From assembly GCA_951406725.2 (NCBI GenBank), contig OX597820.1, positions 45,012,001 to 45,076,000 of the forward strand: a stretch of DNA of 64,000 bases, read 5' to 3'. The position numbers were made by a program, and so were the translations under genes. The DNA is from Octopus vulgaris. Lineage: Eukaryota. Below the pieces are notes generated by a model that searched no databases, was not told the origin of the DNA, and worked only from the letters and a program-made list of their open reading frames with translations. Each line of letters starts with the position of its first letter. Position 1 is the first letter of the stretch. Positions 10,357 through 57,438 of the stretch are shown here, one piece after another.

Positions 10357-10403
10357 ATCAAAGAACTTTTGTCACACACACATCCTGTGACCTCTTCAGT
10401 GAT
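10357..10403 (-). ncRNA. Decayed type I hammerhead ribozyme motif
   Basis: Minus: ATCA-CTGAAGA-GGTCACA(ggatgtgtg)TGTGAC-AAAAG-TT-CTT-TGAT. Stem I ATCA/TGAT and stem II are intact, GAAA is mutated; (TA)n lies ~65 nt downstream. Confidence 0.45.
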
Positions 10404-10939
10404 TCTCTATTAATGTTTTCATTTAAGAATGAGTAAAGAATTAATAGGCGAGGCACAACTGCATAGTTAAGTATCTTACTCCTCAACTCTGTGCTCTCAA
10501 GATTGAATCAATTTGTGGTACTTCGGGCAAGTACCTACTACTACTACTACTGCTACAATCTGGGGTCAACAAATGTCTTGTAGGTGGAATTTGGGAAACG
10601 GAAACTGTGTAGAAGCCCATCAGAAAGAGTGTTCCTATTCTAGAGTGGTAAACTTAATCCGTTGTTTGGTTTATTGGTTCAACTCTTTAGTGTTCAGATT
10701 ACCCTATTAAAAATTATGCTTATTTACTCATATCATTTTGTATTAATCACACATTACCTTATAGCTTTGAGGATTCAATGATGTGATTGCTTATTTTTAG
10801 AATGTCAATGTAGGGTAGGTGTGAAAGGCTAGATATGGCCAGTTTGAATGTACAAAAGGAAGACTATTTGGGCTGGATATGGCTGGTTTAAATGCTAAGG
10901 CAGTGTTTCTCAACCTTTCTACCCTTGCATAACCCTTAA

Positions 10940-11159
10940 CCCTTTAGCATTCAGATTATTCTGTCAAATGTAAAGCTTATATATTCACACCATGTAAAAT
11001 TAATCTTGCATCATTTCATGGCTTTGAGATTTCAATGATGTGATTGTTTATTTTTAAAATGACACAATAAGGTAGCTATGAATGACCATATCTGACTAGT
11101 TTGAACATAAAATAGGTAGAATATTTTGGCCGGATATGGCCGGTTTAAACACTAAAGGG
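10940..11159. mobile_element. piggyBac-like MITE, 220 bp
   Basis: TTAA on both sides (10936-10939, 11160-11163); termini ccctttag / ctaaaggg; further copies near 22505-22712 and 56320-56535. Confidence 0.85.
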
Positions 11160-11288
11160 TTAAAATAAATTACATGTCTGAAGGAACCCCTACACAAAAT
11201 TTATATACTATATCTTTCTCATATTTTTCATCGTAGATCACATGGTAAATATCATATCATCATCATCATCATCATCGTTTATATATAT

Positions 11289-11717
11289 ATATATTATATT
11301 AAATTAGAGACAAAACCACTCTTAGGCAAATCAAACAATGAAAAACTTAAGCCAATACATATGATTAATTTATATTATTTAAATATGTAAAAAATATAAT
11401 TAATATCACACTACGATTGTTTAAACCTCGCCAAGAAAAATATTTAAACCACCTGATGAATGACTGCGACTCAAAAATTTGAAGACAGCAGGCATGAAAC
11501 GATCGTAGTGTGATATTAATTATATTTTTTAATAATTTTGTTACATATTTAAATAATATAAATTAATCATATGTATTGGCTTAAGTTTTCATTGTTTGAT
11601 TTGCCTAATAGTGGTTTTGTCTCTAATTTAATATAATATAATATTTTACTATAAAATTGGATTCAATCCTAAATCTGATTTTTCCCTGTAAGTTTGGATT
11701 TATTCCCTAATATTTAT

Positions 11718-11720
<3 letters not shown>
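11289..11720 (+). mobile_element. Penelope-like pLTR/retrozyme-type element with inverted truncated arm, between (TA)n tracts
   Basis: ~135 bp inverted arms (about 11289-11422 and 11497-11640); hammerhead motif in the spacer/right arm; right arm continues ~80 bp to a (TA)n run. Confidence 0.7.
11450..11510 (+). ncRNA. Minimal type I hammerhead ribozyme
   Basis: CAC-CTGATGA-ATGACTGC...GCAGGCAT-GAAAC-GATC-GTA-GTG: intact core, stem I CAC/GTG, stem II 7 of 8 paired, palindromic stem III ACGATCGT. Confidence 0.8.
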
Positions 11721-11766
<46 letters not shown>

Positions 11767-12889
11767 AAGGTTGTTATGATTTTTTGACAACATAATAAGC
11801 TAGATAGGATGATTACAATATTACAATAACCAATAATATGTTGTGCATGTATAGTAATATGATCGTGAAATTAGCATTAGCTTATCTCACTCTTTCTCGA
11901 GGAACCCGGTTGAGAAACACTGTGCTAAAGGGTTAAGACATCAACTGTTGCAAGTATTTGGGCCAGATTTCTACTTTACCCCACAAGTCATGGAAGCCCT
12001 GAAAAAATTCATAGCCTCTTCCTTTCTCTCTCTCTCTGAATAAACCATTATAACATAAAATAAATAAAAAATTCAAGAAAACTGGTCATGAAAACTATAT
12101 TAATAGCAAAATATAATGGAGAACTTTACGCAGAGATAGTATACCCTAGCAACAAACTAATGTCAGATAATACAACCTAACTGTTTCCTGATTGCTGAAA
12201 GAAGCCTATTGTTAATATGTCAAACATTTCGAATCAGAAAGATAATGAATCAGAAACAACAGACAGTAAATCACTCCCACAATTCCTGCCTACATTAAAA
12301 AACATCAATAACTAAGACAACTGATAACTACTTTATTCTGAAGATAAGACCAGGAATTGTATAAATGGTGCAAACCTTGGGAAAATTATTGTTCAAAACA
12401 AAATAAAAATAAAAGTATTTAGGAAAAAAAAAAGGAATATATGATATTATGAAAGATATCTTAAATAAGAGATTAAAACTAAAGCATCATCACTTTTATG
12501 TCCATTTTTCCATGCTTACATGTGTCAGATGCAATTTTTCTCTGACTGGAAGCTTTTTCTGTCACTAACCCTCACTTGTTTTCTAGCAAGGTAATATTTC
12601 TCTATGACCAGACATGTTTTTACAGATTAGAAACGAATGATATTTCTTATGTGATGGTAACATGATGTCAAGACAAAGAAGAACACACACACATACACAC
12701 ACATGCATACATTTGATGGGCTTGTTTCACTTACAAAGCTTGGGTCGGCGCAGGGTTAGAATAGAAGAGATTTGCCCAAGTTGCCATGCAAAAGGAGTGA
12801 ACCCAAAACTACATGATTAGAAAGCAAACTTGTTAACTACACAGCCAGGACTCAAAAATATAATTTGTTTCCTAAATATAATTATAAAA

Positions 12890-13105
12890 TTGGTTTCAAA
12901 TTTTGACACAAGGCCAGTAGGTTTGGGGGAGGGGCTAAGTTGATTAACTCAACCCTAGTGTTCAACTGGTACTTATTTTATTGACCTCAAAAGGATGAAG
13001 GGCAAAGTCGACCCTAGCAGAATTTGAACTCAGAATGTAAAGACAGATGAAATGACACTGAGCATTTTACCTGGTGTGCTAATGATACTGCCAGCTCACC
13101 ACCTT
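12890..13105 (-). mobile_element. SINE family B
   Basis: Reverse complement of the 4850/31573 family (..ctggtacttattt..aaggatgaagggcaaagtcgacc..ctgccagctcaccacc). Confidence 0.8.
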
Positions 13106-13654
13106 AATTATAATTATAATATTAATATATATACACATAGAGTGACCCTATTAGTATTTAAATAATAAATAATATATAAAACATTTATTTTTATATTTTG
13201 CGGCAATTTTGTTTTTATATATTTTTAATACTATCTTTGCTATTTGATTGTGACTGCCTTTTGATATACATGTTTTTTTTTTATTAGTAATTGGCAGAAA
13301 GTTACAGAATAACTAAAGGGCCAAGAGTTTTGTGTTGCTGGCTCTTTCTGCCAATTATTAATTAAAATATATACAAACTCATGTTTGGAGTTCTGTTTTT
13401 CCTGTACACCAACCTTATATATTCACATATAGATGTTAAATGATGATGATGGTCACACACACATACACTACACACACACATATATTTATATATATATTTG
13501 GGAAGCACTGGGTAGATATGGTGTTTTTGCACCTTGTACCATTAGAGAGAAATTTTCTTCCCATAATAACTGCAGTAAATTTACCTATAGAAGTTAAAAT
13601 ATGCCATAAACGTATTTTAACTAAAGTTTATATATATATTCTTTTATTCTTTTC

Positions 13655-14026
13655 TTTTTCTTACTCATTTCATTCATTCGACTGCAGCCATGCTGGGGCA
13701 CTGCCTTAAAGGGTCTGTTAGTCGAAGAAATTGATCCAGGATTTATTCTTTGTAAGTCTAGTACTTATTCTATCAGGCTCTTTTGCTGAACAACTAAGTT
13801 ACGAGGACAAACACAGAGACAAAGACACACTCACATAAATAGATACATATTTATCATACATACAATAAACTTCTTTCAGTTTCCATCTACCAAATCAACC
13901 CACAAGGCCCTGGTCAGCCCAAGGCTATAGTAGAAGACACTTGCCCAAAGTGTCATGCAGTGGGACTGAACACAGAAGCATGTGGTTAGGAAGCAAGCTT
14001 CTTATCACACAGCCATTCCTGTGCCT
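13655..14026 (-). mobile_element. SINE family A, diverged
   Basis: Reverse complement of family A head, body and tail. Confidence 0.8.
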
Positions 14027-14536
14027 ATATATAAAACAGCTAGTAGTGAGGGATTATCAATCCAGGACCTGACCTAAACACAATGCAAAAATGTTCATGT
14101 GGGTTGACCAGATTACAAACACTAATGGCCACTTCTCAAATTTCAGCCATCCTATCCTGCTTCTTCTATAGGGTGACCACTTCCTCTATTCTTTCTATAT
14201 CTTCCTCTCTTCACCTTAATCATAACTTGTCTTTCCATTTCCTCTTTATCTCTAATCCACTGGCCTCTTTCCTTCTCTTTTCTTCCCCATACCCCATCCA
14301 TGTACCATTCCCTCAGTGTTCTGCCTTGTTATAACCAGAAATGGCTCTGACAAAAGTAGGATTAATTGTTTAGGTCATTCAATTTTTCTAAACTAATCAA
14401 TAGACCAATTGAGTAAACCTATCAGTCATGTACCTATAATGACTACTGGGAACAGCTGTAAGCCTAATTTACTCTATTAAAAGGAAAATATGAAATGACC
14501 ATTATTTATACTTTGTCATATATATATATATATATA

Positions 14537-14848
14537 TCACTGTGATCACCGTGACTGACCAGGCTATCAGATGTTGCTACACATTGCTGGTCACAATGTG
14601 CTTTGCATTGTTTTAGCCTTCAAATGATGCCACCCTGCTGGCAAAGCGAGCAGGTCAACAGAAGAAAGTGTTAGAAAAAGTTGTGGTGAAAGAGTACAGC
14701 AGGGATCACCAGCACCCCCTGCCGGAGCCTCATGGAGCTTTAGGTGTTTTCACTCAATAAACACTCACAACGCCTGGTCTGGGGATCGAAACCGCGATCC
14801 TACAACCATGAGTCCACTGCCCTAACCACTGGGCCATTGCACCTCCAC
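14537..14848 (-). mobile_element. tRNA-derived SINE, family C
   Basis: Minus head gtggaggtgcaatggcccagtggttagggcagtggactcatggttgtaggatcgcggtttcgatcccc is tRNA-like with A and B boxes; flanked by (TA)n; partial copy near 7519-7585. Confidence 0.8.
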
Positions 14849-14852
14849 GTTT

Positions 14853-14883
<31 letters not shown>

Positions 14884-15019
14884 TATATTAGGAAAAATGT
14901 CATAATCATCATCAAAACATGAGAGAACATTGTGTCCGGAAAGATCCCACAACATAACAGAAACCTTGTTCAATTGTGTGTATAAGTTTAGTGTTGACTG
15001 TTGGAAAAAATAGTACTCA

Positions 15020-15523
15020 ATACTAATTGTAGAGGATACCTGTGGAAGGGAAAGACCCAAGAAGACATGGGACAAAGTGGTGAGAAAGAGTCTTTGGATG
15101 GTGGGCCTCACTGAGGAAATGACAAGGGACTGGGAGATGTGGCGATTTGCTATACTTGATGAGCCAAGCTAAGTAAAATCACCGTCTTCCACATGTACAG
15201 GCTTGTCCTTCCAGGTTGGTACTGCATAAATGCACTCATGTCAGTGCTGCATAAATGCACCACCCATGCTGGAGCTGTGTAAATGCACCATCCATGTCGG
15301 TGCTGCATAAATGTGCCATCCATGCTGGTGTTGTATAAATGCACCTGTGCTGGTGACACATAAAAAGCACTCAGCACACTGGTGTTAGGAAGGTCATCTA
15401 GCCATGGAAACCATGCCACAACAGTCAACTGGAATCTGAACAGCTCCCAGCTGGCCAGCTCCATGTCAAACTGTCTAACCCATGCCAGCATAGAAAGTGG
15501 ACATTAAATGATGATGATGATGA
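15020..15523 (+). mobile_element. RTE LINE 3' end, old
   Basis: Homologous to the end of the 57541 ORF (GTCGRERPKKTWDKVV), diverged ~30 bp tandem repeats, end ccatgccagcatagaaagtggacattaaatgatgatga. Confidence 0.75.
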
Positions 15524-15607
15524 CTATTGATTGCACTGGTCACTTGCTACTCTGTGCACCTACAAGCAAAACTCCAAGTAACAAGAGACTGACTTGACCT
15601 AAATAAC

Positions 15608-15831
15608 TATTTCTTTACTACCCACAAGGGGCTAAACACAGAGAGGACAAACAAGGACAGACAAACGGATTAAGTCGATTATATCGACCCCAGTGCGTAA
15701 CTGGTACTTATTTAATTGACCCCGAAAGGCAAAGTCGACCTCGGTGGAATTTGAACTCAGAGCATAGCGGCAGACAAAATACCACTAAGCATTTCGCCCG
15801 GCGTGCTAACGTTTCTGCCAGCTCACCGCCT
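15608..15831 (-). mobile_element. SINE family B, young
   Basis: Near-identical reverse complement of 31573-31794; TSD cctaaataac on both sides. Confidence 0.88.
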
Positions 15832-17198
15832 AAATAACACATACTCAAACACACAAACAAACAAACATATACATTTATACATTATATATAATTACATACA
15901 TATATATTGCATATATCCACACATGCATACACATTCACGCTTATAATTACACATAAATACAGCTATACAATGTCCCAATGTACTATAGCAAGAGGCAGAG
16001 TGGGAACTCTTGCTCCACATAACATCATACTATCAAACTTTATTCCATTATGGAACCATAAAGAATCAACCATTATTAATGATCTTTTTTTAGATGTTAT
16101 TTCTGAACTCTGGCCTCACACTGTGCGGGCAGCAGGGGGTAAAAAGGATGTGATGATGGGCAAGTAGAAGATGAAATATGTACGATGATGGATGCTGTGA
16201 GAGTTATGGGTAGAAAGAGGAGAGATACTTTCAAATGATTTTCATACATGTAAGTAACTTTTGAACTGAAATATATAAAAGCTATTTCATAACAGATGTG
16301 CTACATGTTGATATGTTAACACACATGCATAAAAATTTGCACAGTAGTGGATTACAAAACCGTGAGTGTGCGTGTGTGTGTGTGTGTATAAGCTTCTGTG
16401 ATGAATCTGGTTTATATACATATGTGTATGTATGTGCATATTCATGAGTGTGTGTGTATGTTTATTTGTTCATTAATTTTTACATCTGTTTTTCCATGCT
16501 GGCATGAGTTAGGTGATCATCATCATCACCATTTTTAACATTTACATTTCCATGCTTTCATGGGTCAGATAAAATTTGTTGAGGCAGGTTTTTTTTCTTT
16601 TTTTATGGCCAGATGTTCATCTTGTTGCCAACACCTCATCTATTTCCAATCAAGGTTATATTTTCCTTATCTGTTCAACAAAAACAGCTCTACAGCCAAA
16701 TTATATGCATACACAAGCAACAAGCACACATACAAATAACTTGTGTTTATGCGTAAATTTTTGTGTGTGTGTGTTTCTGTGTTTTTCAACATATAGATAA
16801 CCAAACACAGATTTTAAAGAAAGGCTTTCACTATAATGACAGGTTGTTGTTGTTGTTAAGAGAGAAATTCAGTGAGAGAGAGAAAGAGAGAGGGACAGAG
16901 AGAGAAAGCGTGTGTGTGTGTGAAAGATAGATAGTAGGATGTTGCAACCATAGCAACTAATATGTAACTTACTATATAACAGTCTACTATTAAAAGCAGG
17001 TATGTGCATGATTAACAAATATTGTTACTGGCAGCATAGCGATGGGTAAAGACCTAGTCAAGTAATAATAATTCTATCTACTCTAAGCAGAAGGCCTAAA
17101 ATTTGGGGGAAACAGGGTTAATCAATGACACTAACCTCAATGATCAAAAGATGCTTATTTCATTAACTTGGTACCAGTACAGATGTTATTCACAAAGC

Positions 17199-17238
<40 letters not shown>

Positions 17239-17254
17239 TAATAATAATATTAAT

Positions 17255-17500
17255 AATCCTTTCTACTAAAGGCGCAAGGCCTGAAATTTTGTGGGGAGGG
17301 GACTAGTCGATTAGACTGAAAGCCCCCACCACCACCACACCACCCCCTCCTCCGTGTTTCACTGAAACTTAATTTATCGACCCCGAAAGGATGAAAGGCA
17401 AAGTCAACCTTGGCAGAATTAGAACTCAGAACGTAAAGACAGATGAAATGTCACTAAGTATTTTGCTTGACGTGCTAATGATTCTGCCAGCTTACCACCT
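17255..17500 (-). mobile_element. SINE family B with (TAA)n tail at ~17199-17255
   Basis: Family B body on the minus strand between AAT microsatellites. Confidence 0.75.
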
Positions 17501-18738: not shown

Positions 18739-19127
18739 AGGTGTGGCATGGCTGGGTGGTAAGAAGCTTACTTCCCAACCGCGTGGTTTCAGGTTCAGTC
18801 CCACTGTGTAGAACCTTGGACCAGTGTCTTCTACTCTAGCCCAAAGCTGGAGGAGGAGACACTTGTGTGTGGATTTGGTAGATGGAAACTAAAAGCAGCC
18901 TGTCACATGTGTTTGTATGTTTGTGTCTGTGTTTGTTCCCCACCACTGTTTGACAACCAGATTTAGTGTGTTTATGCCCCCCCCATAACTTAGCAGTTTG
19001 GCAAAAGGGAGTGATAGAAAAGTACAATGCTTTAAAAAAAAAAAGGACTAGGTCAAATTCATTTGATTCAAAATTCTTCAAGGTGGCACCACAGGATGGC
19101 TGTAGTCTAATGACTGGAACAAATAAG
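18739..19127 (+). mobile_element. SINE family A, diverged
   Basis: Head ggctgggtggtaagaagc..ggttcagtccc, body and tail recognisable. Confidence 0.75.
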
Positions 19128-26430: not shown

Positions 26431-26669
26431 TTTTTGTATTTTTAATGTAGTCATAGATGCACTATTCCTGAATAAAATGTGGGATGGTCATGGATAGAAT
26501 GATTTTACTTATAGGGTTGCATAATCAGGACTCCCCTAAAGCTAAACAATAATGACAACAACAGCAGTATAAGAATACATATTTAAGACAATCCCAAGTA
26601 CAGTTCTAACTAAACTCTATACAACTATACACAACTTTATGCAATTATATGCAACACTAATACAACTAA

Positions 26670-31794: not shown

Positions 31795-32472
31795 AATAAG
31801 AAACTGTTGTTAATTAGATTATTATTTTATTTTCTGCACTATCAAGCACATGTTTAGAAATGAAGAAAAAGAAAAACAAAAGCGTTTTCATTTCTAAAGA
31901 TGAGGTTAATAATTTAAAAGAAAATTGTAAAGGTGCAGGCTAAGCTATGATGTTACCAAATTCACTTTGTGACCACATGGTTTCAGATTTGCCTCCATTC
32001 TTCACATCTTGGACAAGTGTTTTCTACTGAAGCCAAACTACATCTGTTCTGATAATTGGCTATGACTTGGTCAGTGAATCCTTTCTGATGGCTGACAATT
32101 GACAGCAAGATCATCTGCTATGGATCATACTAAAGCGTGTATGCATGCAACTGGGGACCACATACAAACTTGTATTCCCACTGAAACTCTAAACATGATT
32201 TCTACACGTCAACAGCAAATGATGACTACGACTATGGAATCTGCGCTATCCAATACACTTGCTTTCTCAGCGGAGCACTCATCAATTTTGCATGCTGTGG
32301 TTGACCATTAAATGTCTGGTCAGCATTTGTGAGGAAGATGGTAAACTTGTTGATTGGAACCAGCTCAACCCACCCCAGGTGAATGCCACTGCAAGTACAA
32401 GTAAGTACTGAAGCTTTGAGTTGTGAGAGAAATCCTGTAAACAGAAACCGTATGGAAGCCCAAAGTCCATTA

Positions 32473-32657
32473 TATATATTATATTTTGGTTGAGTCTATC
32501 TCTTTGCTACTCTGAGTTTCATATGTGAGTGCACAGTGTCTTTCTTCAGTCAAGCTGTCACCCGTAACCTATGAGCTGTAACTTGCCCGAACACCCTGTG
32601 CACCCAAATGCAAATCTCAGAGTAGCTAGAGACTGACTTAACCAAAATAAAATATAT
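32473..32657. mobile_element. Old foldback with decayed hammerhead motifs in both arms
   Basis: Imperfect ~80 bp inverted arms next to a TA run. Minus arm: CTTGA-CTGAAGA-22 nt-GAAAC-TCAGA-GTA-GCAAAG (32554-32502). Plus arm: cttgc-ccgaaca..ctcagagta-gctag. Confidence 0.5.
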
Positions 32658-44527: not shown

Positions 44528-44654
44528 ATATGAATGAGTAAAAGTAGAGGTACAGGTGTCAATCCATGTAATGTTTCCATTAATCAATTAAAGAAGTCGT
44601 TAAAAACAGCCATAATGGATTGCCACCTGTACCTCTACTGTTACTCATTCATAT
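44528..44654. repeat. 40 bp inverted repeat (hairpin) next to (TA)n
   Basis: Arms 44528-44567 and 44615-44654 differ at 2 positions; 47 nt spacer. Confidence 0.85.
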
Positions 44655-45114
44655 ATATATATATATATATATATGTGTGTATATATAAATATAATAAATA
44701 TATATGTATATATATATATATTTCTATATATCTTACAAGTCATGATGAATTATATTACAAATATTTGAAATGTGTATTACAGATATACACTAAAGTACTC
44801 TGATACAACTCTACTTCTTACTCATACTAAGATCAGCAAGAAGAACATATATGTAGTTATTTGACCAGCTAGAAGCAACAGTAAAATTCCTTCAAATGAC
44901 ATCCTACTGCTTCAAGAAAAATAAGAAGGACACATTGAATTGTGTAGATCAAGCTACATTATTCCTTAAAGCAAAATGGGATTGTCACATTGAAAGTCTT
45001 TGATCAAGTTACTAAGCAAGATTACCAAGCAGATAAGGTATTGAATATTGGTTATGGTTACTACAGTAACAATACAGTGTGGGTTATCAGTAAATTAATA
45101 TTATGCATATAGCT

Positions 45115-45494: not shown

Positions 45495-45596
45495 AAAAAT
45501 ATGGAATGCTTCATGAATTTGCATGTCATTCTGGCACAGAGGCCATGCTAGTCTTCTCTGTATTGTTCCAGTTTTAGTATGTGTACTGCTGAAGCA
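45495..45596 (-). pseudogene. U6 snRNA pseudogene
   Basis: Minus: tgcttcagcagtacacatactaaaactggaacaatACAGAGAagactagcatggcctctgtgccagaatgacatgcaaattcatgaagcattccatattttt. Collinear with U6 incl. the ACAGAGA box and 3' T-run; lacks ~5 nt at the 5' end; six CpGs converted. Confidence 0.95.
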
Positions 45597-46486
45597 TAAA
45601 TTTAATGTCATTGTGAAATTAGAGTACATGGTCCTTTTAGGCAGTGTGGACTGAAGATTGAATCAGCTATTAACTGGTACTTGATTATATCAAACCTGGG
45701 CAAAATGAAAGATAAATTTGATCTCAGTATGATTTGCACTCAGAATATAGACAGTCAGTATTTATTTCAGCTCTTTACATTCTGAGTTAAAATCAAGTTG
45801 AGGTCAACTTAACCTTTCATTGTTCTACAGGTTGATGAAAGAGAGTACAAGTGAAGAACTATGTTCAATAAAATAGACTGTTTCTTTCCCATTCCTTTTG
45901 TGCCTGGTATTGTGCCTGTGTTAGAAATTATTATTACTTAATAGATTGCCATATGTACATTAAACAGTAAGATACAAAATGATGACTTTATTCTTTTATT
46001 TGTTTTTCAGTCATATGACTGTGGTCATGCAGGAGAACCGACTTGCATATTTATTTTTAATACGTTCCAGTAGATTCATCATCATCATCATCGTTGTTGA
46101 ATGTCTGCTTTTTATGCTGGCATGCACTGGATGGTTTGACAGGAGCTGGACAGCCAGAGAGCTGTCCAGGCTTCAATTATCTGTTTTGGCTTGGTTTCTA
46201 TGGCTGGATGCCTTCCCTAATGCCAACCACTGGCATGGATGGTTTTTATGTGTCACTGGCACAGGTGCATTTTATGTGGCACCACCACAAATGCATTTTA
46301 TATGGCACTAGTACCTGCAAGACAAAGACCTCTCGGCTGGGAAAGGGAGTGAGGACATGGCCATATAAAAACATACCTGTCCAATGTGATATGTTAATCA
46401 CTGCTGTGTTCATCACAGGAAAACAGTTTCTCTTTTATGATGAATATGCACAGGTTCATAACACACTTAATTCATAGTATATATGA

Positions 46487-46534
46487 TTTTGGAACAACTG
46501 GTGTTTCAACACCTTTGTGTTTCATCAGCCAGAA
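46487..46534 (-). ncRNA. Minimal type I hammerhead ribozyme, sense to the ATG4-like transcript
   Basis: Minus: TTCTGG-CTGATGA-AACAC(aaag)GTGTT-GAAAC-ACCAGTT-GTT-CCAAAA. Intact core, perfect 5 bp stem II, stem I 5 of 6 paired, stem III ACA/TGT, GUU triplet. Confidence 0.75.
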
Positions 46535-47015: not shown

Positions 47016-49488
47016 AGTCCCTTGCCTATCCTCATTTTGTCCCCTTCAAACACCAGAACCTACATTAATCCTTTGATACCAACCCACGAGAAATCATCCC
47101 TCTATACTAGTATACAAAGTCATATATTAATTAAAACCTTCTACCATGCTTTTATGTAAGGTGCTTTTGTTAAGTTATGATACAAACACCATTTTGATAA
47201 TGAGAGTTCTTAATAATTTCCAAAATTAATTGAAAGGTTATGTGCCCCACCTTTCTTTGAATTACAATATAAAGAGAAAAATGCTGCAAATATATATATA
47301 TATAAAAAACTAGCATAGTGGTGTCCAGATTCATCTTTATAGTGCAACCCTAGGAAGGTTTGTATGTTGATTATAGGTTTCTAATACACCAGAAAATCGT
47401 GACACATACAGCTCAATGGGTTTAGTGTGAGGTCTAAGAGAACAACCCTGATTTCCTAACTTCTGTTCCCTTAAAGCTACATTAAAAAGAGCTTAGGGAG
47501 TAAAACCTGAAGAATCGGGAGATAGGATAGTTAAGGCAGTTGGTACTATTTCCAACCAGTAACAATGGTGGTGCCAGACTGCATTAGCACTTGTGCTTAG
47601 ACTATAACGGCGTTGTTGTTGTTGTTTATTCTCGTGTTGGCTCTGATCGAGCAAACCCACGATCAAACTCGTTCTAGTCACGACTATCAAATTTTATTTT
47701 CTGGAATAGTGTACTTCGGGTTGCCTTATCTGATGGCCGCTTTATTAAAACAGTAGGATAAGGGGTTTTGTGCTGCTATTTGTTCGTGGTGCTGCTATAC
47801 CAGGGTTGGGAGAAAATGTGGTGTGAGTAGAAGCCTAATGGATACTATAACATAAATCTCTTCGTAATTTGTAGCGTGATACAGAAAGATGCCAGATAAG
47901 CAACAGCACACTGCCAAGAAAAAAAAACAACAAAAAAAGGGAACGTCAGAGTAAGACAAAAAAATCTATAAGCTATGTAACGAAAATATCTATAAACTAT
48001 GGCATAAAGATAAATAAATATGGGTAGCACAAAAATAATAAATATATATATATATATATATATTTCCGCTTCTAAAATAAAATAATTAACATTATCCCAA
48101 GGTATTTTTAGCAACTTTTATAGCAGGAGTTATTTCTCTTGACTTCCGCCACCTCATCACCCAATGATGAGATGCAATGTTATGTTTGATGAGACAGATG
48201 TTTTCTTTTATGGAGTCTAGTTTTTACGCGCAAAATCGAGCGATGAAGCGTTAAAAATTATAGAGAAATAATTAGATCAATTATCAGAATAATGTTTACT
48301 CAAAGTAGCAGGTGTTTGTGTGAGAGGGGTATATAAAGTGTACGTAAAAGAATAACAGGATTACAAGTTTAACCTCATCATCATCATCAGTTTTAGATTC
48401 ATCTTGCTATGAGTCAATGGGTTGGACATGTTTGCACTACAACATCCGTTCCGCATGCAATGACCCCACACCAGCTATCTGTTAAATAACACACACACAA
48501 GAAAGAGAGAGAGAGACGAAGTGCTCAGCATAAGTGGACTTTGATTAGTCTTTTGACGTAGCAACAGAACTGGTTGCTCTAAAAATCCTTTCGTTGTCAG
48601 GTATGCGGGGCCAGTGCAATGTGCTTGACAGTAAGCCAAACAAGACAATCTCTGTGTAGTTGCTCGACCTGCTAGAAATACCAGTCAAACATCCCTCAAA
48701 TTACACCGTCACTTTGAAAAAGGGAGAGCACATTGCATAATGTAGTCCTACATACACAATGCCACGAGGGGATGATGATCATGGCTGAAACATCCATCTA
48801 CTGATTCAGGGTTGATCTGGTGTTAAACATTAACAGGACTGAAGCGGCCGACAGAGAGTAGAAAGTGAATTGGTCGGGGTTTAGAACCGATGCTGCATGT
48901 TTACAAAGCCAATGGTAGAATTATATAAAAAAAAATATGTCAAATAAACTCGTAGAATGAATAACTTCTTACATTCAACAAGCCTAGCATTTAAGGAGTC
49001 GATAGCGAAAGGGGGGCGGTTGCAAAGCCAACAATTTAATCAATTGTTCGGATCACAGAGATTTATAGTGACTCAATTTTGTGAATATTTCGCAACCGCG
49101 TCTCTATAAGCATCCACAAAGCATGATATCGGTTATTTGTGAGTGAATGAAACTTAATAAATCCAATGCGCTGGTTAACATGTGTAAGCCATTCAAACAA
49201 CACAACTATTGGTTTCACACCAGAACATATTAATATGTTTTACGGAAAGAAAAAGAGATAGAGGGGCGGAGTAACGCTGAAAAACATTGTTGTTGTTTAC
49301 GTGAACAATGTCAAAATCACTACCGCCCTCCAACAGAAACCAAACACCTTTATATTCCACTTGTTTTCTTCACTCTTTTCTAACCGATTCATAGAAGCAT
49401 GCTAAGATGCACGATAAAAAGGGTTTCCAATAAATATTATAAAGCTTCCAGTAACAAATTGAAAGTAAATAGATAAAAATCAACTTAC

Positions 49489-51502
49489 CATATTTTACAT
49501 TGTTCCACATAGACATGAGTTTTGATTTGACTTTTTCAAGGTTTTCCCCTTCAGATTGGCCATTACTAGGCGAGGGGTCTATTGAAGTACTTGCAAATTC
49601 ACTAACTGACATAGAACGTCGGGCAGGTACACTACTGGCACGGTGGCTGCTCCCACTACTTGTAGGTATCTTACTACGACTCGGTCGGTCAGCTGTATAG
49701 TAGACATGTTCTTTGGAAGAAGGGCGGTTGGGTTTTTCTTCCACACAGAACACCTCTTCACTGGAACCTTTCATTTTCTTGTCATGGCTTTTGACTTTTC
49801 CTCTATTGTGACTGCTGGATTTACTTGAATAACTTCCATAATCGCTCGTGTTACCGGCGCTACCATAACCACTATCTTTACTAAAACTACTGTAGTTACC
49901 TTTGTAATCAGTATACGCGGTGTTACTACCAAGAGTGTGGCTGTAGTTTGTGTGTTTTCTATTGCTACTCGTGTCGGTACTTCTAAGAATAGGACTAGTG
50001 TTGTAACCACTTCGAATATCAGCAGCGATATCGTGGCCGACTCTGTGCTTACTTGAAATCCTATATGTGGGTTGAGAATCCCTTAACTGAACAAGTTTTT
50101 GGTTGGTTTTATAAAAGTTTTGAATAAAACTATTATCAATGTTACTTATGTTATGTTTATCGCTTGAGGAAGATCTGTGTTTCGTCTCCCCAGACGGTTT
50201 AGGAAGACCGTCTCCGGCAACATTACTGAATGATGTGGTCCCACGAGTATAGGAAGTTAAATCATTCGGAGGTTTTTGATCCGACGGTAAATAAGATCTG
50301 TGTTTATCAGCTTCCACAATATTTTTGTAGTTGGTGTTTTTGCTACTTGTAACGGTAGTATTAATCGTAGTGTTAGCTGTAGTTGTTGTTGATAATGATG
50401 ATGTGACATTACAAGATTGCTTATTGGAACGGGCTCGGGCAGCAGCTGATGTCCTGGTTGGAGGGAGCACGATATCATCTTTCCTTCTGGTATCCAGATA
50501 TGGTGATGCTGGCGTAGCACGGGCCGGGCTGCCTGGTCCACTAGATGATGGAGATGGACATGAAATTGAACGTTCGGTGACAAAAGGGGCTGGACTGGGG
50601 AAGACTGGTGCAGACTTAACATTGCCACTACTTCCATCCACTTTTTTCCTTGTACTTCGAACATGAGAATCAATGACTATGGGAGATGGAGGCAGAATTT
50701 TCTTGTGACTTCCTTTAGCAATATCGCTTGCGCTGCCAGGAGGACTGCCCGAGACAGCTGTATTATGACGAGAAGGGGATGATGAAGACGATCGACTACT
50801 TTGTCCACTGTTCGATCGGTGACGATGAGGGCGGTGTTGGTGAGGTGAGGATGGAACTGATGGAAGAATGCGTTTAGTCGAAGAAGGGGTATGCCTCGGG
50901 GAAACCTCCACAGATGACGTCGGAGAATCAAACGAAAGTGGATTTCGAACCAGTTCGGGTATTTCATCCGCGTCGGTCACTCCAGTGCCATGATAGGCTT
51001 TACCTTGTTGGCAATGATGAGACGACATTCGACTGATATATTTTTTACTCTGTGCAGGGCAGCTGGAAACATAGTCAAGAGTAGACGCATCCGTCGCTTC
51101 CTTGGGAACAGGTGACGAAGAGTGGTGATGCTGATGATGTTGGGAACGATGACGGGGGATGTGATTATGTAGTGAGACATCTTGCTCAGGCGCTGGTGTT
51201 TGCATCTGTTTCTTTTTCTTCTTCTGCAGCTGTTGCGGTAGTTCTCGATGCTGATCTGTATTGTAAACGCCGCAATCAGCACCTTCTTTAGTAGCCTTCT
51301 GCCTCGTTGATGTAGGTGAAGGTAAAGGCGAAGACGACAAATGTCTTAGGGGCGAACAGGGTCCAGACGTCCCAAGTCCAGTATTACCAGCAGTGCAGAT
51401 AGTTGCAGTAGTGTTACGAACTACAACCGTAGTGCCAGTGGCGGCTGTTAGTGTTCTTGCTGCGGTTCGGGAAGAGGATAAAGCAGCATTGTTATCTGTC
51501 AT
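49489..51502 (-). CDS. ATG4: First coding exon (2014 nt, 671 codons + 1 nt) of an ATG4C/D-like cysteine protease with a long low-complexity N-terminus
   Basis: The 710 aa ORF reaches LEKVKSKLMSMWNNVKYG, matching vertebrate ATG4D DKFKAKFLTAWNNVKYG, and is followed exactly by a G|GTAAGT donor at 49488; the remaining 38 codons are intronic read-through. No catalytic-domain exons were seen. Confidence 0.85.
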
Positions 51503-51525
51503 TGTCCCAGCAATGATTCAACCAT
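51499..51525 (-). promoter_or_regulatory. 8-codon upstream ORF (MVESLLGQ*) whose stop overlaps the main start (ATGA)
   Basis: Minus: gcggcgccATGGTTGAATCATTGCTGGGACAATGA; the main ATG (51502-51500) is the last A of CAA plus the TG of TGA. Confidence 0.7.
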
Positions 51526-51900
51526 GGCGCCGCAGTACGTAAGACTTCTTCTTTGTAATTCAACTACAATGCTTATGCTTCCTCTGCTTCTTCTTCCTCT
51601 GGTGTAATCTTAATAAGAAGCAGAACGTGGATACTTCCTTTGTAAAATAAACATTAGTTGCAATTTATCAGAGCGGTTGTAAAGAAGAAACCACTCTTTG
51701 ACATACACACATACGAGAAAGGGCAACTAGCACCGCTCGTAGTGTTAAAGAACGAACACTATTTCTGATTTGACACACACGCACGCACTCACTCACACTA
51801 TCAATCACAAAGAGAAAGCAGACGGTGGTTTTTCCAATAAAGTGGATTGGAAAGGCGAAACGAAACGGATATAAATATGCTTTTACATGATTAAGTATAC
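51526..51900 (-). promoter_or_regulatory. Putative 5' UTR / promoter of the ATG4-like gene
   Basis: Repeat-free, CpG-retaining DNA upstream of the ATG; inverted CCAAT pair tttccaat-N7-attggaaa at 51831-51853. Confidence 0.45.
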
Positions 51901-54329
51901 ATATATATTTATGTATATAAATTTATTTGTATAAAGAACAATCGAGAAATTGTCGGATACTTTATTCTTCCTATTTTCCATTCCAATTTTGTTTATTAAA
52001 GTAGATTCCAAAATTACGAAACGAAACTATCAGTTTCCTCTATATAAATACGCACATACACAATCAGAAATAGTTATCACTTAATTGTATTTATATATTT
52101 ATGCGGAGTTAAAAGTCTTTTAGACTACACCTATAATTTTTTTTTATGTATGCATAACAATATGAAGGTGTAGCAATATTTTTATTTTTATTTTAAATCT
52201 TCGTGAGAAATATTTGTTTTTAATTACATTTTCCTTTAGCTGTTCTAGGTTCTATAACATAAATACAAAACATACAAACGAAAAGAAATTTTAAAAAATA
52301 CGAGAACTGCTACGCACACACATATACGAATATGAGAGCGTGCATGAACATTAATTTAATGTATTTAAATATTATAAATAAAAAATATACGTGTGTGTGT
52401 GCGTGCGTGTGTGATACTTGTGGAATTAACTGAAATAGTAATACTGTGAGGCAGATGTTGTTTCTACGGTAGGGTCTTATCAGATCAGGACAGCTTGTGA
52501 CAATCACGAGATGTAGTCCTTCCGTTCAAAACAAATTGTCAACAAACAAGGAGGTATAACTAAATAACAAGAAATCTTCTGCTTGCGAAAATAATGGCAT
52601 TTTAGTTTGTTATGAAACGATACGTTGACAAAATGTTAAAAAGTGGTTAAAAACCCTTTAAACATAACTGAATTTCTGAATAATAATAATGATAATGATG
52701 ATGATTTCTTTATTAACCATAACAGCCGTTGTAATTATCTTGAAAAATAGAAAGTATTGTCGTAAAAATCAATAAAGGTTACTTGAATCTTCGACTAAAA
52801 AACAAAACCATCACAACAGATAAAATGTGTTCTATATTACTATTATCAATTCCATTCATATCTAGAATGTATTATAAGAATTGATTCTTGTACTTGAGTG
52901 GTATTTTATGTTATCAACCCCGCCCTAAAAGGATGAAAGGCAAAGTTGAACTCGACGGGATTTCAAGTCACATGTTAGAGAGTAGAAGTTTAATTTAATA
53001 GCAGTTTATTGAATTTTTCTATTTATTCGTCCAGTTAGTTTTGATGTATAGAGAACGAAGGTGGAATTGTAAAATACTTTGACGTGTGTATCAATAACTG
53101 ACGTTAGCGTTAATGAATGACAGAGGTAGTAAAGCGTCAGACGAAATGCATTGTAGTATTTAGTTACATCCCTTTATACTCTGAGTTCATACCCCGTCAA
53201 TGGCCAATTTGTCATTCATCCCTCCAAGGTCGCCATAAATAAGTAACATTTGTAAACTGTATCGATTCAATCGATAACATTTTCTTTCGTATATCGTAGC
53301 ATTTTCTTTTTTAAGTAATTAATAAAACAAAACAAAATCAGTCGTTACAAGATAGGGAGTTATTTAACCCCAAGTATTGATCCAACACATAATATGATCG
53401 AAAATATTCAAATTGTGACGATCCGTCTTTTATTTATTTATTTATTTATTTATTTGACAGTGAATTTACAACTTTCTTTTTAAGATAACGTTGCGTGATT
53501 TGGGAAGAGTTCAACTGTTATTTGTAGCAGATCGAGTGATACTACCCCCACATATTTTTCCTTGAGGCCCAAGCCAGCTCTGACCGAGCAGACAATTGAT
53601 CAAATGAGTTCCAGCAGCGACTATTTTGGTGTTTTGTAGTTGTTTTTATATTCTAGGACCACTTTGACCAACATTTCCCCTCTTTTTCTGGGCTTTAGGA
53701 TGCGATTTGAGATAATTTAGCTACCACTTCTAGCAGGTCGAGTAACTGTCTAGAGGCTTACCCACGGGCTAGAAAAGTAAAGATTTAAAAAATAATTATT
53801 AGGCACAGCACTAAATTCCTTGTGGTATTAAATGTCATTCTTTTGTATTCCAAGTTCAAATACCTTTGGGGCCAGCTTTACCTTTCTTTCCTCAGGATTG
53901 ATAGAATAACTGAATAATTGATTCAATCGATAATATTTTATCTTATTAAAAAGATGACTGAGTAACCAATCATTAATCAATATTAAATTTATTGATCCAT
54001 TCATTTAAATGTTAAAAAGAGAAGTTGATTTTTTTTTTCTAGCTCAGTGCCAGCCTTGATTAAGCTGGCACTGTGTGACTAACTCATTACTTTTTTTTTA
54101 ATGATAATGTATGTACATATGTAACACGTATGCATATGATACATATATAATTCAAAACCACGTTAAATACAAATCCAAGACCGAAGGAAATGCAAACGTG
54201 AGTGAAGAAAGAAAAAAGGACAAAAAGGAGGAAAAAGAAGAATGAAAGAAAAAGAAAGAAAAAAAACATCAATTCAACCCAAATGCTTCAATTGGTCACA
54301 CATCACAAGTTTCAATGAAACCTACTGCA

Positions 54330-54740
54330 GCAAGCCAACACACTCATGGCATTACTGCAGGCAATGGCTAGGGTAAGGTGTTGAAACAGCTAGGTAGCCT
54401 TATGGGCATCACCTGACATGGGCATCAGTAAGGCAATGACAAAAACATTGCCATTAGCAGCCCAGCCCTTCCAAATATCTCACACTTCACAGGTTGGAAG
54501 AAATAGTTCACTGACAAGTCCTGATACTTAATGATTTTGTTCCATTCAGCTATGGAAGCAATAACCCTCCCATTTAATGCAGCATCCAAGATGTGGGAGG
54601 GAGCAAAAGAGTCACAGATTGTGACATTCCAGATAGGGCACCTACCTCTTACCCAGACCAGAGACAAAGGGTAAGACCATCTGGTCTCTTCACACATCAC
54701 TTCTAGATAATCCTGCTGGCTCCAGAACCGAGGAGGTATC
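54330..54740 (-). mobile_element. CRE/R2-group non-LTR retrotransposon remnant (restriction-like endonuclease domain)
   Basis: Minus strand gives KRPDGLT, then after a frameshift WNVTICDSFAPSH..IAEWNKIIKYQDL..FQPVKCEIFG, the RPDG..D.T..AE..K..KY..F.P..E..G signature. Confidence 0.75.
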
Positions 54741-54954
54741 AACCCAAGCCAGAAAAACAAAAGTATCTACTATTACATTATCCAATTCCTGATTTTTTTT
54801 TTTTCAAGACAGTTAGGCGTGATTTGAGGGAGATTTAGCTGCTATTTCTTGCAGGTACTAATAACATCTTAGTGCCCCCCTTGTTGGCTCGTAACAGATG
54901 AGTAGACTGTATATCATCATAATCATCAAGAACATTATCATTATCATTTAACAT

Positions 54955-55124
54955 AGGTGTAGGAGTGGCTGTGTGGTAAGTAGCTTGCTTATGAACCACA
55001 TGGTTCCGGGTTCAGTCCCACTGCATGGCACCTTGGGCAAGTGTCTTCTACTATAGCCTCAGGCTGACCAAAGCCTTGTGAGTGGATTTGGTAGATGGAA
55101 ACTGTAAGAAGCCTGTTGTATATA

Positions 55125-55164
<40 letters not shown>

Positions 55165-55381
55165 ATATATGTTTGTGTGTCTGTATTTGTCCCCTCAACA
55201 TCGCTTGACAACTGATGCTGGTGTGTTTGCATCCCCGTAACTTAGCGGTTCAGCAAAAGAGACCAATATAGTAAGTACTAGGCTTACGAAGAATAAGTCC
55301 TGGGGTTGATTTGCTCGACTAAAGGCGGTGCTCCAGCATGGCCACAGTCAAATGACTGAAACAAGTAAAAGAGTAAAGAGT
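54955..55381 (+). mobile_element. SINE family A
   Basis: Near-consensus copy. Confidence 0.9.
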
Positions 55382-56868
55382 ATCCACTTTTCCATGCTTG
55401 CATGACTTGAAAAGAATTTGTTGAGGCTGATTTTTCTATTGCTGGATGCCTTTCCTGTAACAACCCCTCACCTGTTTCCAAGCAAGGTAATATTTCCTCA
55501 TGCCTAGAAAAGTTTTTCACAAAAGACTAGAAATGAACAGCCTTGCTTGTATGATGATGATGCTGATGATGCTTTACAACCATGTCATAACCCTCCTGCT
55601 TGCCAGCTCTTGTTAAACCATACACCTTATGTCAGCATGGAGAATGGATGTAAAATGATGGTGAGGAACATGATAATGTAATATCTCAACAAGGGTACAC
55701 ACAAACACACACACCTGCACATACAAGCATACATATACAGTTATTTATACCCCTGGTTTCTTTCAGTTTACATCTATCAAATCCATTCACAAGGGTTTGG
55801 TCAGTATAGAGCTACAGCAGAAAACACTTGCCAAAGGTCCCACACAGTGGGACTGAACCCAAGACAACATAATTGGAAAGCAAGATTCTTAACCACACAG
55901 ACACATGTGAGCCTATATAAAATTAAAAATAAAATGAGCTAAGGGAAATAACTCAAATGATCCAGTGGCATGACTGCATAAATGAGTAAATGTGTAATAC
56001 TCTGAATGCTGTATGTAGAAACGAAAAAACAAAAAAAAAAATGATATATTGAAATACCTGTAGTCAGGGATGGAAATGGATATTAGGAACTAGGTGTATG
56101 ATAAGGGCTGAGAAGGCAGGATTAAATGCTATAAGTCAGCCTTCTCTGTGAGTTGAAAGTAGATCACTGTACTCCTGCACCCTGTCCAACCCCAACATCA
56201 TCCATTTCCTTCTGCTTTTACTTGGAGAAAGTAAATAAAAACCTTGTTAGCAACTCTTAAAAAAAAAAGTGGGAGAAAAATTTCAAGATAGTAAATATCT
56301 TGGAGCTTATTGATGAGTTTAACTCATTAGCATTTAAACTGGCCATATCCAGCCCAAATATTCTACCTGTTTTATGTTCAAACTAGCCAGATCCAGCATC
56401 TCACACCTGCCTTGCAATGTCATTCTAAAAATTAATAATCAAATCTTCAAAATCTCTAAGCTATAAGATAATGAATGATTAATTGTTAGAAATGTGAATA
56501 AATAAGCATTATATTTGACAGAGTAATCTGAATACGATGTAGTTAAAGGAGCAAATGTTTGATCTTTGTTGGCTGACTTGAGACAACTATTGACACATTT
56601 AATTTTATTAGACTTCATTAGCATAGTCCATGGTATTACTTTAAGCTGCATCCGGTAGTGGGATCCAGGAGTTCTAGGGTTTTCAGGAGTGTGGAACCAT
56701 CCTCTTAGCCACTGTTGATCCTATGTCTATTCTGACCTGGAATACTAGCATTTGTCAGGGTCCCAGCTGTGAGTTAAGTAGCATGTAACCACTCGAGCCA
56801 GGTTACCTTGAAATCAGGGAATGCAGCAATGTGAATTATTTTGGCAAATGAACTTATTGAATCAATAT

Positions 56869-57080
56869 AGGCACAGGTGTGGCTGCATGGGAAGAAACTT
56901 GCTTCCCAATGACATGATTCTGGGTTCAGTTCCACTGTGTTATACTTTGGGCAAATGTCTTCTACTATAGCCTTGAGCTGACCAAAGCTTTGTGAGTGGA
57001 TTTTGTAGACAGCAACTGAAAGAAGACCATTGTGTGTGTGTATGTATATATATATATATGTATATGTATGTATGTATATG
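56869..57080 (+). mobile_element. 5' half of SINE family A, ending in its internal microsatellite
   Basis: Head and body up to gaaagaagacc then (TG)/(TA)n, where the foldback element begins. Confidence 0.75.
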
Positions 57081-57109
57081 TATATTAAAAATGGGGAAGG
57101 TCAGTTTAT

Positions 57110-57170
57110 GGGATTACCTTAGGTTTCCTGTCCATAAATGGTTTAACTTTATGGTGTATCATCAGATCCC
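57110..57170 (-). ncRNA. Type I hammerhead ribozyme (left arm)
   Basis: Minus: GGGAT-CTGATGA-taca-CCATAAA..TTTATGG-acag-GAAAC-CTAAG-GTA-ATCCC. Confidence 0.78.
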
Positions 57171-57377
57171 AAAAACCTGTTGGCCCATGACCTCTTAAAA
57201 ACATGGAGGGAGAAATGCCTCTGGGGATTATCTCCCTTCACTAATGGCTATCAACTTCTGGCTGCCAGAAGTCAATAGCCATTAGCAAAGAGAGATAATT
57301 TCCAATTGTTACCTTCGAGTAGTAGTGAGGCATTGCTCTTTCCATATTTTTAAGAGGTCGTGGACCAACAGGTTTTG

Positions 57378-57438
57378 GAGATCTGATGATATGCCATAAA
57401 GCTAAACCCTTTATGGACAGGAAACCTACTGTAATCTC
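57378..57438 (+). ncRNA. Type I hammerhead ribozyme (right arm)
   Basis: GAGAT-CTGATGA-tatg-CCATAAAG..CTTTATGG-acag-GAAAC-CTACT-GTA-ATCTC. Confidence 0.78.

Follow-up and report, generated by a model that had tools for sequence, protein, structure and literature searches.

What kind of element carries the hammerhead ribozyme motifs scattered through this 64-kb stretch of Octopus vulgaris DNA (the window), several of them in foldbacks that end at TA runs? An earlier note on this DNA proposed a separate, ORF-less retroelement population. We find instead that the loci are probably 5'-truncated 3' ends of several Hydra-type families of Penelope-like elements (PLEs), with a second copy attached in inverted, head-to-head orientation at four of the loci.

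Hammerhead Motifs in the Window

We recognized type I hammerheads by a CUGANGA, GAAA and UH core, by stems I-III in type I order and by a frequency above chance. Cores in which every conserved letter is present, accompanied by a stem III and by 3-6 bp of stem I, occur at 11453 (+, locus B), 46528 (-, locus E), and 57165 (-) and 57383 (+), both in locus F. As a control we used 300 dinucleotide shuffles in 1-kb blocks. The four real motifs compare with a shuffle mean of 0.63 when nothing is demanded of stem II, and with 0.09 when at least 5 of 8 stem II pairs are required, a filter chosen after the loci were known; no shuffle reached four in either setting. These full-core motifs are more frequent in the window than in shuffled sequence. 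A strictly contiguous stem II leaves two real motifs against a mean of 0.03, matched in 1 of 300 shuffles, and the core heptamer by itself is not enriched (31 in the window versus 29.3 +/- 5.3 in shuffles).

A decay-tolerant score of at least 22 is reached by six matches in the window, with 0.15 expected from 519 shuffles. These are the four full-core motifs, 32549 (-, locus C) and 12338 (+), which was not on the earlier list. The 12338 match (score 22.4) has neither a foldback nor a TA end. At 10399 (-, locus A) the score is 20.5, a level at which chance alone gives 1.17 matches per window, and we consider this locus a plausible but borderline decayed hammerhead. The candidate at 44576 (+, locus D) is absent from the relaxed-scan matches scoring 19 or more with two core changes permitted. 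By their sequence, B, E and both F copies are classed as type I hammerheads, C joins them through its relaxed score, and D does not. Four full-letter cores therefore bear out the "four intact" ribozymes of the earlier note, but the word is too strong for F, where stem II is irregular at its base, and for E, with a 3-bp stem I and an imperfect palindrome; among its three decayed ones, 32549 scores well, 10399 is borderline and 44576 could not be confirmed. Rfam returned 68 matches at E <=10 in the window, none to a hammerhead model, which we do not count against the motifs because these variants deviate from the Rfam models.

Foldbacks, TA Runs and Host Context

The features outside loci B and F are as follows.

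10357..10403, minus strand: locus A, possible decayed hammerhead with one core change, 4-bp stem I and 5-bp stem II
15539..15606, plus strand: third copy of family C, more decayed, core lost
32474..32657, both strands: locus C, old foldback of two head-to-head copies with the hammerhead region in both arms; TA run at 32471-32479
32504..32553, minus strand: C hammerhead, core letters kept and stem III palindromic, stems I and II decayed; predicted cut after 32508
44528..44654, both strands: locus D, 127-nt foldback ending at the TA run 44651-44674; hammerhead not demonstrable
46490..46531, minus strand: locus E, solo hammerhead with intact core at 46528, 5-bp stem II and 3-bp stem I, no inverted arm
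49487..51502, minus strand: first coding exon of an ATG4-type (peptidase C54) host gene, 100% identical to residues 1-672 of O. vulgaris P0001

Foldbacks are present at B, C, D and F, each with an inverted 5'-truncated copy, and are lacking at E. A TA-type run lies at or beside the end of five of the six loci; sequence no more than 10 nt from such a run makes up 2.2% of the window. The proposed targeting of (TA)n is borne out by these ends and by B copies that run into (TA)n. The description of the loci as mostly (TA)n-associated foldbacks fits these four, but A has only a 48-nt hairpin (10303-10350, 3' of the motif and followed by a TA run at 10271-10293) and E has none. BLAST between five loci detected no similarity outside the core and microsatellite, as expected of independent families; the two motifs at 57 kb, however, belong to one family (see below). 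No tandem array covers any locus in the window.

The arms of C differ at 21% of aligned sites, and the third copy, missing from the earlier list, is 81% identical to family C over 58 nt (E 2.7e-10). For D, a composite hammerhead parse was rejected, as it would need three core changes and a deletion. Inverted pairs of octopus SINEs may account for the 45670-45855 foldback as well as for long inverted repeats at 26, 33, 38 and 55 kb. No later exon of the ATG4-type gene was found within the window, and it is likely that loci A-E sit in the intron following the first coding exon, which would measure at least 49 kb.

Anatomy of Loci B and F

11294..11422, minus strand: B, inverted shorter copy of the element 3' end, from GAAA/stem III to the TA run 11280-11294
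11416..11640, plus strand: B, forward copy, starting at about 11416-11423; first 3' end at 11640
11450..11510, plus strand: B, type I hammerhead, core at 11453, 3-bp stem I; predicted cut after 11507
11641..11720, plus strand: B, "tail", confined to the forward arm; second 3' end near 11714, TA run 11721-11760 beyond
57083..57465, both strands: F, two copies of one family, head-to-head, forming a palindrome about an axis at 57263 (foldback 57081-57467)
57109..57171, minus strand: F, left hammerhead, core at 57165, 6-bp stem I; predicted cut after 57115
57378..57438, plus strand: F, right hammerhead, core at 57383, 5-bp stem I, damaged stem III; predicted cut after 57433

The B foldback spans 11285-11640, and its inverted arm aligns to 11497-11637 with 126 matches, 2 mismatches and 3 gap events. 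In the hammerhead, a long stem II is interrupted by a 1x1 loop, and the 8-nt stem III is a perfect palindrome. From the predicted cut site it is 133 nt to the first 3' end and 207 nt to the second, the tail measuring 74-80 nt. In F the arms align with 156 matches, 24 mismatches and 1 gap, and the right arm carries a 22-nt insertion. The motifs at 57110 (-) and 57378 (+), previously listed as unrelated families, belong to one family (88% identity) and are two halves of one palindrome. In both F copies stem II has a lone U-G wobble beside the core, followed by a 3x3 loop. One compensatory stem I pair differs between the arms, which chance could give at 13% divergence.

We examined the motifs by fold prediction. 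The left F stem III is palindromic around one central base, and the minimum-energy fold of this hammerhead shows stems I, II and III. E, with a stem III one mismatch short of a palindrome, is predicted not to fold as a hammerhead monomer. Stem III self-duplexes are predicted at -10.0 (B), -7.4 (C) and -8.2 kcal/mol (the minus-strand F copy), in keeping with the dimer-type stem III suggested in the earlier note. Inside the B and F foldbacks the predicted pairing probability of stems I and III is 0.00. By prediction, the inverted arm pairs across stem III and the cut site and blocks the ribozyme, so that the foldback copies are probably silent.

Family B across Sequencing Contigs

Copy structure was assessed for family B only, using contig depth for shape and not as a copy number. 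Contigs from four runs aligned to it (8827, 2799, 2877 and 92), establishing the genomic family that had been postulated; family B is high-copy in the genome. Depth increases toward the 3' end, being 10- to 40-fold higher over the final 50 nt of the arm than at the hammerhead. Loose ends enter (TA)n behind 11640 in 44, 27 and 3 contigs (runs X1, X2 and X9), and loose ends lie behind 11714 in 26, 36 and 5 contigs (X2, X3 and X9). X9 may be an RNA run. Family B is therefore 5'-truncated with two fixed 3' ends. None of the 28 listed substitutions falls on the 13 core or 6 stem I positions, and 12 are in stem/loop II, the pairs being unphased.

The inversion junction of locus B is not general in the family. 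Depth at its flank is 0.3-4% of hammerhead depth, so that most copies are without it. One X2 contig crosses the same junction, and two further opposite-strand joints were found elsewhere in the family.

It is conceivable, if rather unlikely, that at least family B is a non-autonomous unit of ~225-300 nt, consisting of the terminal repeat only, with its 5' end ~30-37 nt upstream of the core, and moved into (TA)n in trans by a Hydra-type PLE protein, which would make it a monomeric, dispersed relative of the non-LTR retrozymes. In X9, three contigs begin at 11416, immediately after (TA)n and near locus B's own junction, and could mark a fixed 5' end; several further forward copies start at 11415-11427. 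The loose ends listed for X1-X3 show no upstream extension in common, the window holds no ORF remnant, and retrozymes are considered in the literature to be non-autonomous derivatives of PLEs that include monomer copies (10.64898/2026.07.22.740005). However, depth drops near any homology edge, a further 295 loose ends exist beyond those listed, and one X3 loose end carries a differing upstream sequence. Among the joints listed, moreover, none connects the end of one B copy to the start of another, and short ORF-less copies also prevail in a lineage that does possess an ORF.

That lineage, L061, comes from a metagenome comparison and contains a full element in which a 732-aa ORF is flanked by hammerheads. 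Its protein has, by eye, the Hydra motifs RWK, DKT and CxCX5C and no CCHH. A Hydra element was expected there, because our search pattern was drawn from the Hydra table. The protein has no significant Pfam match, and no Octopus-named protein is among the best 120 of its 2061 relatives. Of 24 copies in this lineage, 14 have their end in TA, either 43-52 or 109-115 nt beyond the cut site; among the 9 distinct loci whose 5' flank covers at least 100 nt, 2 have an inverted arm. The tail in this lineage is 66 nt long; the B tail exceeds the 30-40 bp, at one end only, given in the literature. The exact 21-nt B motif has 0 matches in the metagenome contigs, and the 22 viral-contig matches and the GC-rich metagenome matches were rejected, having a longer stem III or no hammerhead and lacking the PLE motif set. 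Given this foldback in an ORF-bearing lineage and the unshared B junction, the separate ORF-less population proposed earlier is unsupported.

Probable Relation to Hydra-Type Penelope-Like Elements

Our preferred reading, truncated ends of Hydra-type PLEs, rests on a match in hammerhead anatomy, 3'-end distance and (TA)n target to the published Hydra clade, and the Penelope link drawn in the earlier note holds to this extent. In Hydra hammerheads an additional base follows the first core box, GAA is preceded by a pyrimidine, and stem III is a palindrome of 3-4 bp with 1-3 central bases; the motif lies near the 3' end. Nearly all families, one of them from Octopus bimaculoides, insert in (TA)n, and in one Repbase family a second hammerhead sits on a truncated copy in inverted orientation (PMC8557442). 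The window hammerheads fit this pattern by eye against File S2, with 29-34 nt from predicted cut to end in C and F, compared with ~37 nt in Hydra-1_Obim (PMC8557442). None of eight window motifs was found in that paper's supplement, where line wraps may conceal matches (PMC8557442). Solo hammerheads, pairs on opposite strands at a spacing of 100-700 bp and an extreme diversity of families have been reported as truncated PLEs (PMC4209133). In an annotation of O. vulgaris, 30 Penelope families are given as recently active (PMC13282606), and its repeat library may already include the families described here.

We found no PLE coding remnant in the 64-kb window. The 150 longest of 249 filtered frames (308 of at least 55 aa) gave no reverse transcriptase (RT) or GIY-YIG match in Pfam, and tblastn with 120 Hydra-type proteins gave a best E of 0.004, at 53864-54040 and near no locus (profile best E 0.2). 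The absence of an RT + GIY-YIG ORF from the window is what truncated copies would show. It is most likely that the window is mostly ordinary transposon debris, and likely that the hammerhead rides along within the element's terminal repeat.

A PLE protein is known to cut and extend both strands from two internal start sites, with ribozyme cleavage dispensable in vitro (PMC11167929). In the proposed course of events, the parent RT-GIY-YIG protein of a full-length element would cut a (TA)n run, begin copying at either of two internal RNA sites 30-210 nt past the ribozyme cut site, and halt early. The choice of start site would give a 3' end with or without tail, and the inverted arm would be a second copy primed from the opposite strand. 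We favor two priming events over simple fold-back copying because tails are on one arm only (forward in B, inverted in L077). In a parental tandem transcript the hammerheads would work as dimers via the palindromic stem III.

The ends could instead derive from another hammerhead-bearing, (TA)n-targeting clade (Neptune, Nematis) or from mixed clades, which we consider improbable. A microsatellite bias also exists in Neptune and Naiad (PMC8557442), small palindromic stems III occur in Drosophila, rotifer and shrimp PLEs (PMC4209133), and B's 74-nt tail and F's irregular stem II depart from the listed Hydra examples; but Naiads have no canonical hammerheads, and the C hammerhead matches those of L062, L075 and L092, a Hydra-type lineage, at 19 of 19 nt, 12 of them outside the search pattern. 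Long terminal inverted arms, TA flanks and the X2 contig with B's junction would suit DNA transposons of MITE type whose captured hammerhead travels within a fixed palindrome into TA sites, yet this is very improbable because B junctions largely vary across copies, and the arms stop at different 3' points and solo copies exist (E and 15539-15606).

Comparison with Known Systems

If truncated Hydra-type ends are the correct reading, (TA)n-flanked foldbacks of 130-390 nt with a hammerhead mark PLE ends rather than MITEs or microRNA precursors, and the short, dated copies record the PLE transposition step, that is, how tandem or inverted ends and tails form. In the literature on hammerheads in octopus and cephalopods we found only Hydra-1_Obim and 235 Rfam hits in giant squid. 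A very high octopus hammerhead density or a non-autonomous B unit would be new, if true. A speculative and rather doubtful extension is that O. vulgaris has ~100,000 hammerheads in many Hydra-type families, including a non-autonomous B with a fixed 5' end (~225-300 nt); that junctions cluster within ~40 nt of the ribozyme as RT stalls there, the ribozyme shaping insertion; and that the inverted arm then silences the ribozyme and seeds long intronic hairpins.

The Hydra clade (Craig et al. 2021, PMC8557442; Hydra-1_Obim, Penelope-13_HM) shares with our loci the type I hammerhead near the 3' end, the extra base, the pyrimidine before GAA, the short palindromic stem III, (TA)n insertion, inverted 5'-truncated copies that place hammerheads on both strands, and an Octopus host. 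It differs in that the window families have no ORF in the window and were not found in the supplement, that B has a long stem II and 133/207 nt between cut site and 3' ends, and that the stem II base of F is unpaired. Minimal PLE hammerheads (Cervera and de la Pena 2014, PMC4209133) resemble ours in their solo motifs, opposite-strand pairs, many unrelated families and dimer-type architecture, but the window motifs keep a 3-4-bp stem III, and beside the core they are mostly A-U rather than G-C. With 5-6 motifs in 64 kb, the window, provided it is typical, exceeds in density the genome counts of that study.

Animal non-LTR retrozymes (PMC7229834; 10.64898/2026.07.22.740005) are likewise short, ORF-less, type I and AT-rich and derive from PLE terminal repeats. 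Retrozymes, however, are head-to-tail tandems yielding circular RNA; our loci are solo or head-to-head without head-to-tail hammerhead units, and their foldback is predicted to block cleavage. The Poseidon element PAc of Anolis (Frangieh et al. 2024, PMC11167929) has two alternative 3' ends, an AT-rich target and a hammerhead upstream of the RT start sites, as proposed here, but belongs to another clade, and its ORF begins inside the ribozyme, which is not seen in the window. If our preferred reading holds, the octopus families extend a clade already described.

Hammerhead Motifs, Foldbacks and TA Flanks in the Window

We scanned the window with a type I hammerhead descriptor and found exactly four motifs, at 11453 (+; locus B), 46528 (-; locus E), 57165 (-) and 57383 (+; both locus F). 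Among 300 block-wise dinucleotide shuffles of the window none reached four, the mean being 0.63 when stem II was left free and 0.09 when a tolerant stem II was required, a filter chosen post hoc with the loci already known. Requiring a strictly contiguous stem II leaves just B and E (2 versus 0.03; 1 of 300 shuffles), and the core heptamer by itself occurs at chance level (31 versus 29.3). A decay-tolerant score of at least 22 gave six matches, versus 0.15 in 519 shuffles, adding locus C (32549, -) and a previously unlisted site at 12338 (+). The latter has intact core letters and a score of 22.4 but no foldback or TA end, and is either chance or one more decayed family. Locus A (10399, -) is borderline, scoring 20.5, where 1.17 matches are expected by chance. 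Within the window, locus D (44576, +) was not recovered by this score, and Rfam hammerhead models gave no match. An earlier note had claimed at least four intact and about three decayed hammerheads of unrelated families; the excess over shuffled sequence upholds B, E and both F motifs, and the relaxed score C, while D drops out as a hammerhead.

Genuine foldbacks occur at B, C, D and F; their arms diverge by 1.6%, 21%, 4.9% and 13%, respectively, and they are thus of different age. F is a single palindrome with one hammerhead per arm, so that the two 57-kb motifs form one family rather than separate ones. Locus C is likewise head-to-head across the entire ribozyme, and its family has a third copy at 15539-15606; the other five loci share no similarity apart from core and microsatellite. 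A TA-type run lies at or adjoins the end of five of six loci, whereas just 2.2% of window positions are no more than 10 nt away from such a run. TA targeting is not restricted to hammerhead elements, since a repeat of ~315 nt (14538-14852) also has (TA)n on either side; its minus strand has a tRNA-like head by eye, for which ARAGORN made no call.

Other features of the window are the following:
45495-45597, -, full-length U6 snRNA copy (86 bits, T-run end)
49487-51502, -, ATG4-type (peptidase C54) first coding exon, 100% identical to residues 1-672 of the O. vulgaris protein
57464-58420, +, LINE-like ORF, 3' part, with a PHD-like finger (E 1e-4)
61134-63889, adjacent satellite arrays of 52-nt and 85-nt units

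No later exon of the C54 gene was found in the window, and loci A-E (10-46 kb) thus likely lie in a single intron of at least 49 kb. The first coding exon, which is more than 49 kb from the next, encodes a Ser/His-rich N-terminal extension of 660 aa that is also conserved in Argonauta, at 78-82%. The LINE-like ORF, which we take to be of RTE type, begins directly behind a TA run at a distance of 60 nt from palindrome F. The U6 copy is probably a retrocopy, and a tRNA-like call (60715-60808) precedes the satellite arrays.

Family B in Public Sequencing Runs

The B stretch is present, in whole or part, in 20 of 24 listed runs (nine studies, four organism labels). Alignment of four runs to 11385-11718 with 80% similarity gave 8827, 2799, 2877 and 92 contigs. 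Depth dips across loop II and climbs from the ribozyme toward the 3' end; the rise is 10- to 40-fold by 11613-11624, a point at which related subfamilies that differ upstream come in. In the three large runs, junction-flank depth is 0.3-4% of that over the ribozyme. Copies run out into (TA)n after 11640 or after 11714, indicating two 3' ends 74 nt apart, and in the window the tail is on the forward arm only. The window junction is spanned by one contig of run X2, and two further opposite-strand joints lie at different positions. The segment 11586-11714 is common to subfamilies with unlike upstream parts and is a candidate signal for protein binding and initiation; several tiny palindromes occur in the tail (11641-11714).

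Of the 28 substitution rows listed, 12 affect stem or loop II and one stem III, and the 13 core and 6 stem I positions have none, a pattern that is suggestive only, because a few master sequences dominate the depth and variants are unphased. The commonest change, at 11492, leaves stem II with a 1x1 mismatch. At 11544 and 11569 both arms have the minority letter, consistent with a single template or a single minor subfamily.

Three contigs of run X9 start at 11416, directly behind a TA run and near the window junction, and no common upstream extension was found among the loose ends listed (295 further ones lie beyond these). Both observations count against B being a truncated Penelope-like element (PLE). 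The contig starts would instead suit a non-autonomous unit, as would a window without any coding remnant: none was found by Pfam on 150 of 249 window frames, or in the window by tblastn and profile searches with 120 Hydra-type proteins. We regard this alternative as possible but rather unlikely.

A Related Lineage with a Complete Element

A short pattern derived from the published Hydra hammerhead table matched at least 121 metagenome stretches and 22 viral ones. One lineage accounts for 24 hammerhead copies, spread over 23 of the 142 loci, and its member L061 is complete, with the order hammerhead-ORF-hammerhead. The 732-aa protein of L061, read by eye, contains RWK, DKT and CxCX5C, which are Hydra protein motifs (PMC8557442), and a GIY-YIG-like end; its closest named relatives among the matches listed come from stony corals. 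Of the 24 copies in the lineage, 14 terminate in TA, 43-52 or 109-115 nt past the cut site. Foldbacks were scored in the 12 copies whose 5' flank measured 100 nt or more (12 shorter-flank copies were dropped), representing nine distinct loci after three duplicate pairs were merged; an inverted arm is present in two of the nine (L075; L077/L119), with the joint ~27 nt upstream of the core. Recovery of Hydra elements was preordained by the pattern; the foldback among truncated copies is independent of it. Locus C is identical to the lineage at 19 of 19 nt (E 0.002), 12 of which lie outside the pattern, with some convergence through ribozyme constraints possible. The junction in L077 (145-244) and L119 holds three to four repeats of a 7-nt unit, the reverse complement of the ribozyme GAAA region, a pattern resembling successive re-priming at the core.

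The octopus families work like Hydra-type PLE ends and show each of the non-protein features tested; Hydra-clade membership is unproven, as no ORF could be linked to them. That they represent another PLE clade is improbable, and that the foldbacks are MITE-like palindromes more improbable still, both readings being weaker than a non-autonomous B. From the earlier proposal of an ORF-less, microsatellite-targeting retroelement population, the PLE link, the (TA)n flanks and a high-copy family B are retained, and the ORF-less unit persists as the unlikely alternative.

Proposed Mechanism and Cleavage

PLE insertions are 5'-truncated and often come with a one-sided tail as well as a truncated copy in inverted orientation; Hydra families insert in (TA)n and bear hammerheads like these (PMC8557442). 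A PLE protein cuts both strands of AT-rich DNA and begins copying at two internal RNA sites, ribozyme cleavage being dispensable in vitro (PMC11167929). A foldback would comprise two short cDNAs, one primed from each strand of the cut (TA)n site, which would be joined at their 5' ends. B has its tail on the forward arm and L077 on the inverted one, an arrangement that fold-back copying of a single cDNA would hardly produce.

Predicted stem III self-duplexes amount to -10.0 (B), -8.2 (minus-strand F) and -7.4 kcal/mol (C), and the palindromic stem III is predicted to require a partner; dimer cleavage is the subject of work by Lunse et al. (as cited in PMC6765202). Predicted foldback energies range from -60 to -250 kcal/mol, and the predicted pairing probability of stems I and III is 0.00 inside foldbacks B and F, so foldback copies should not cleave, according to these models. 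Locus E (46490-46531, -) is solo, sense to the host intron and free of a blocking arm, and is the window's best candidate for cutting host pre-mRNA; folding prediction gave no hammerhead fold for its monomer.

Comparison with Known Elements

Solo hammerheads and opposite-strand pairs 100-700 bp apart were described as truncated PLEs, together with extreme family diversity (Cervera and de la Pena, PMC4209133). Craig et al. (PMC8557442) record an Octopus Hydra family, and one Repbase family with an inverted copy and second hammerhead; searches with eight window motifs recovered none of the window families from their supplement. An O. vulgaris annotation lists 30 recently active Penelope families, with hammerheads unmentioned in its available sections (PMC13282606). 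The scale may be new: five to six motifs per 64 kb would correspond to ~100,000 in the genome, though the window was chosen for its motifs; junction clustering near the ribozyme may be new or a selection effect. A mostly GC-rich, partly viral set of loci with type I hammerheads (L003, L012, L044, L051, L052, L056, L122-L142) shares a common 3' flank; the base of stem II matches that of Hydra PLEs, but stem III is longer. L075 and L077/L119 have the same inverted-arm build as locus B.
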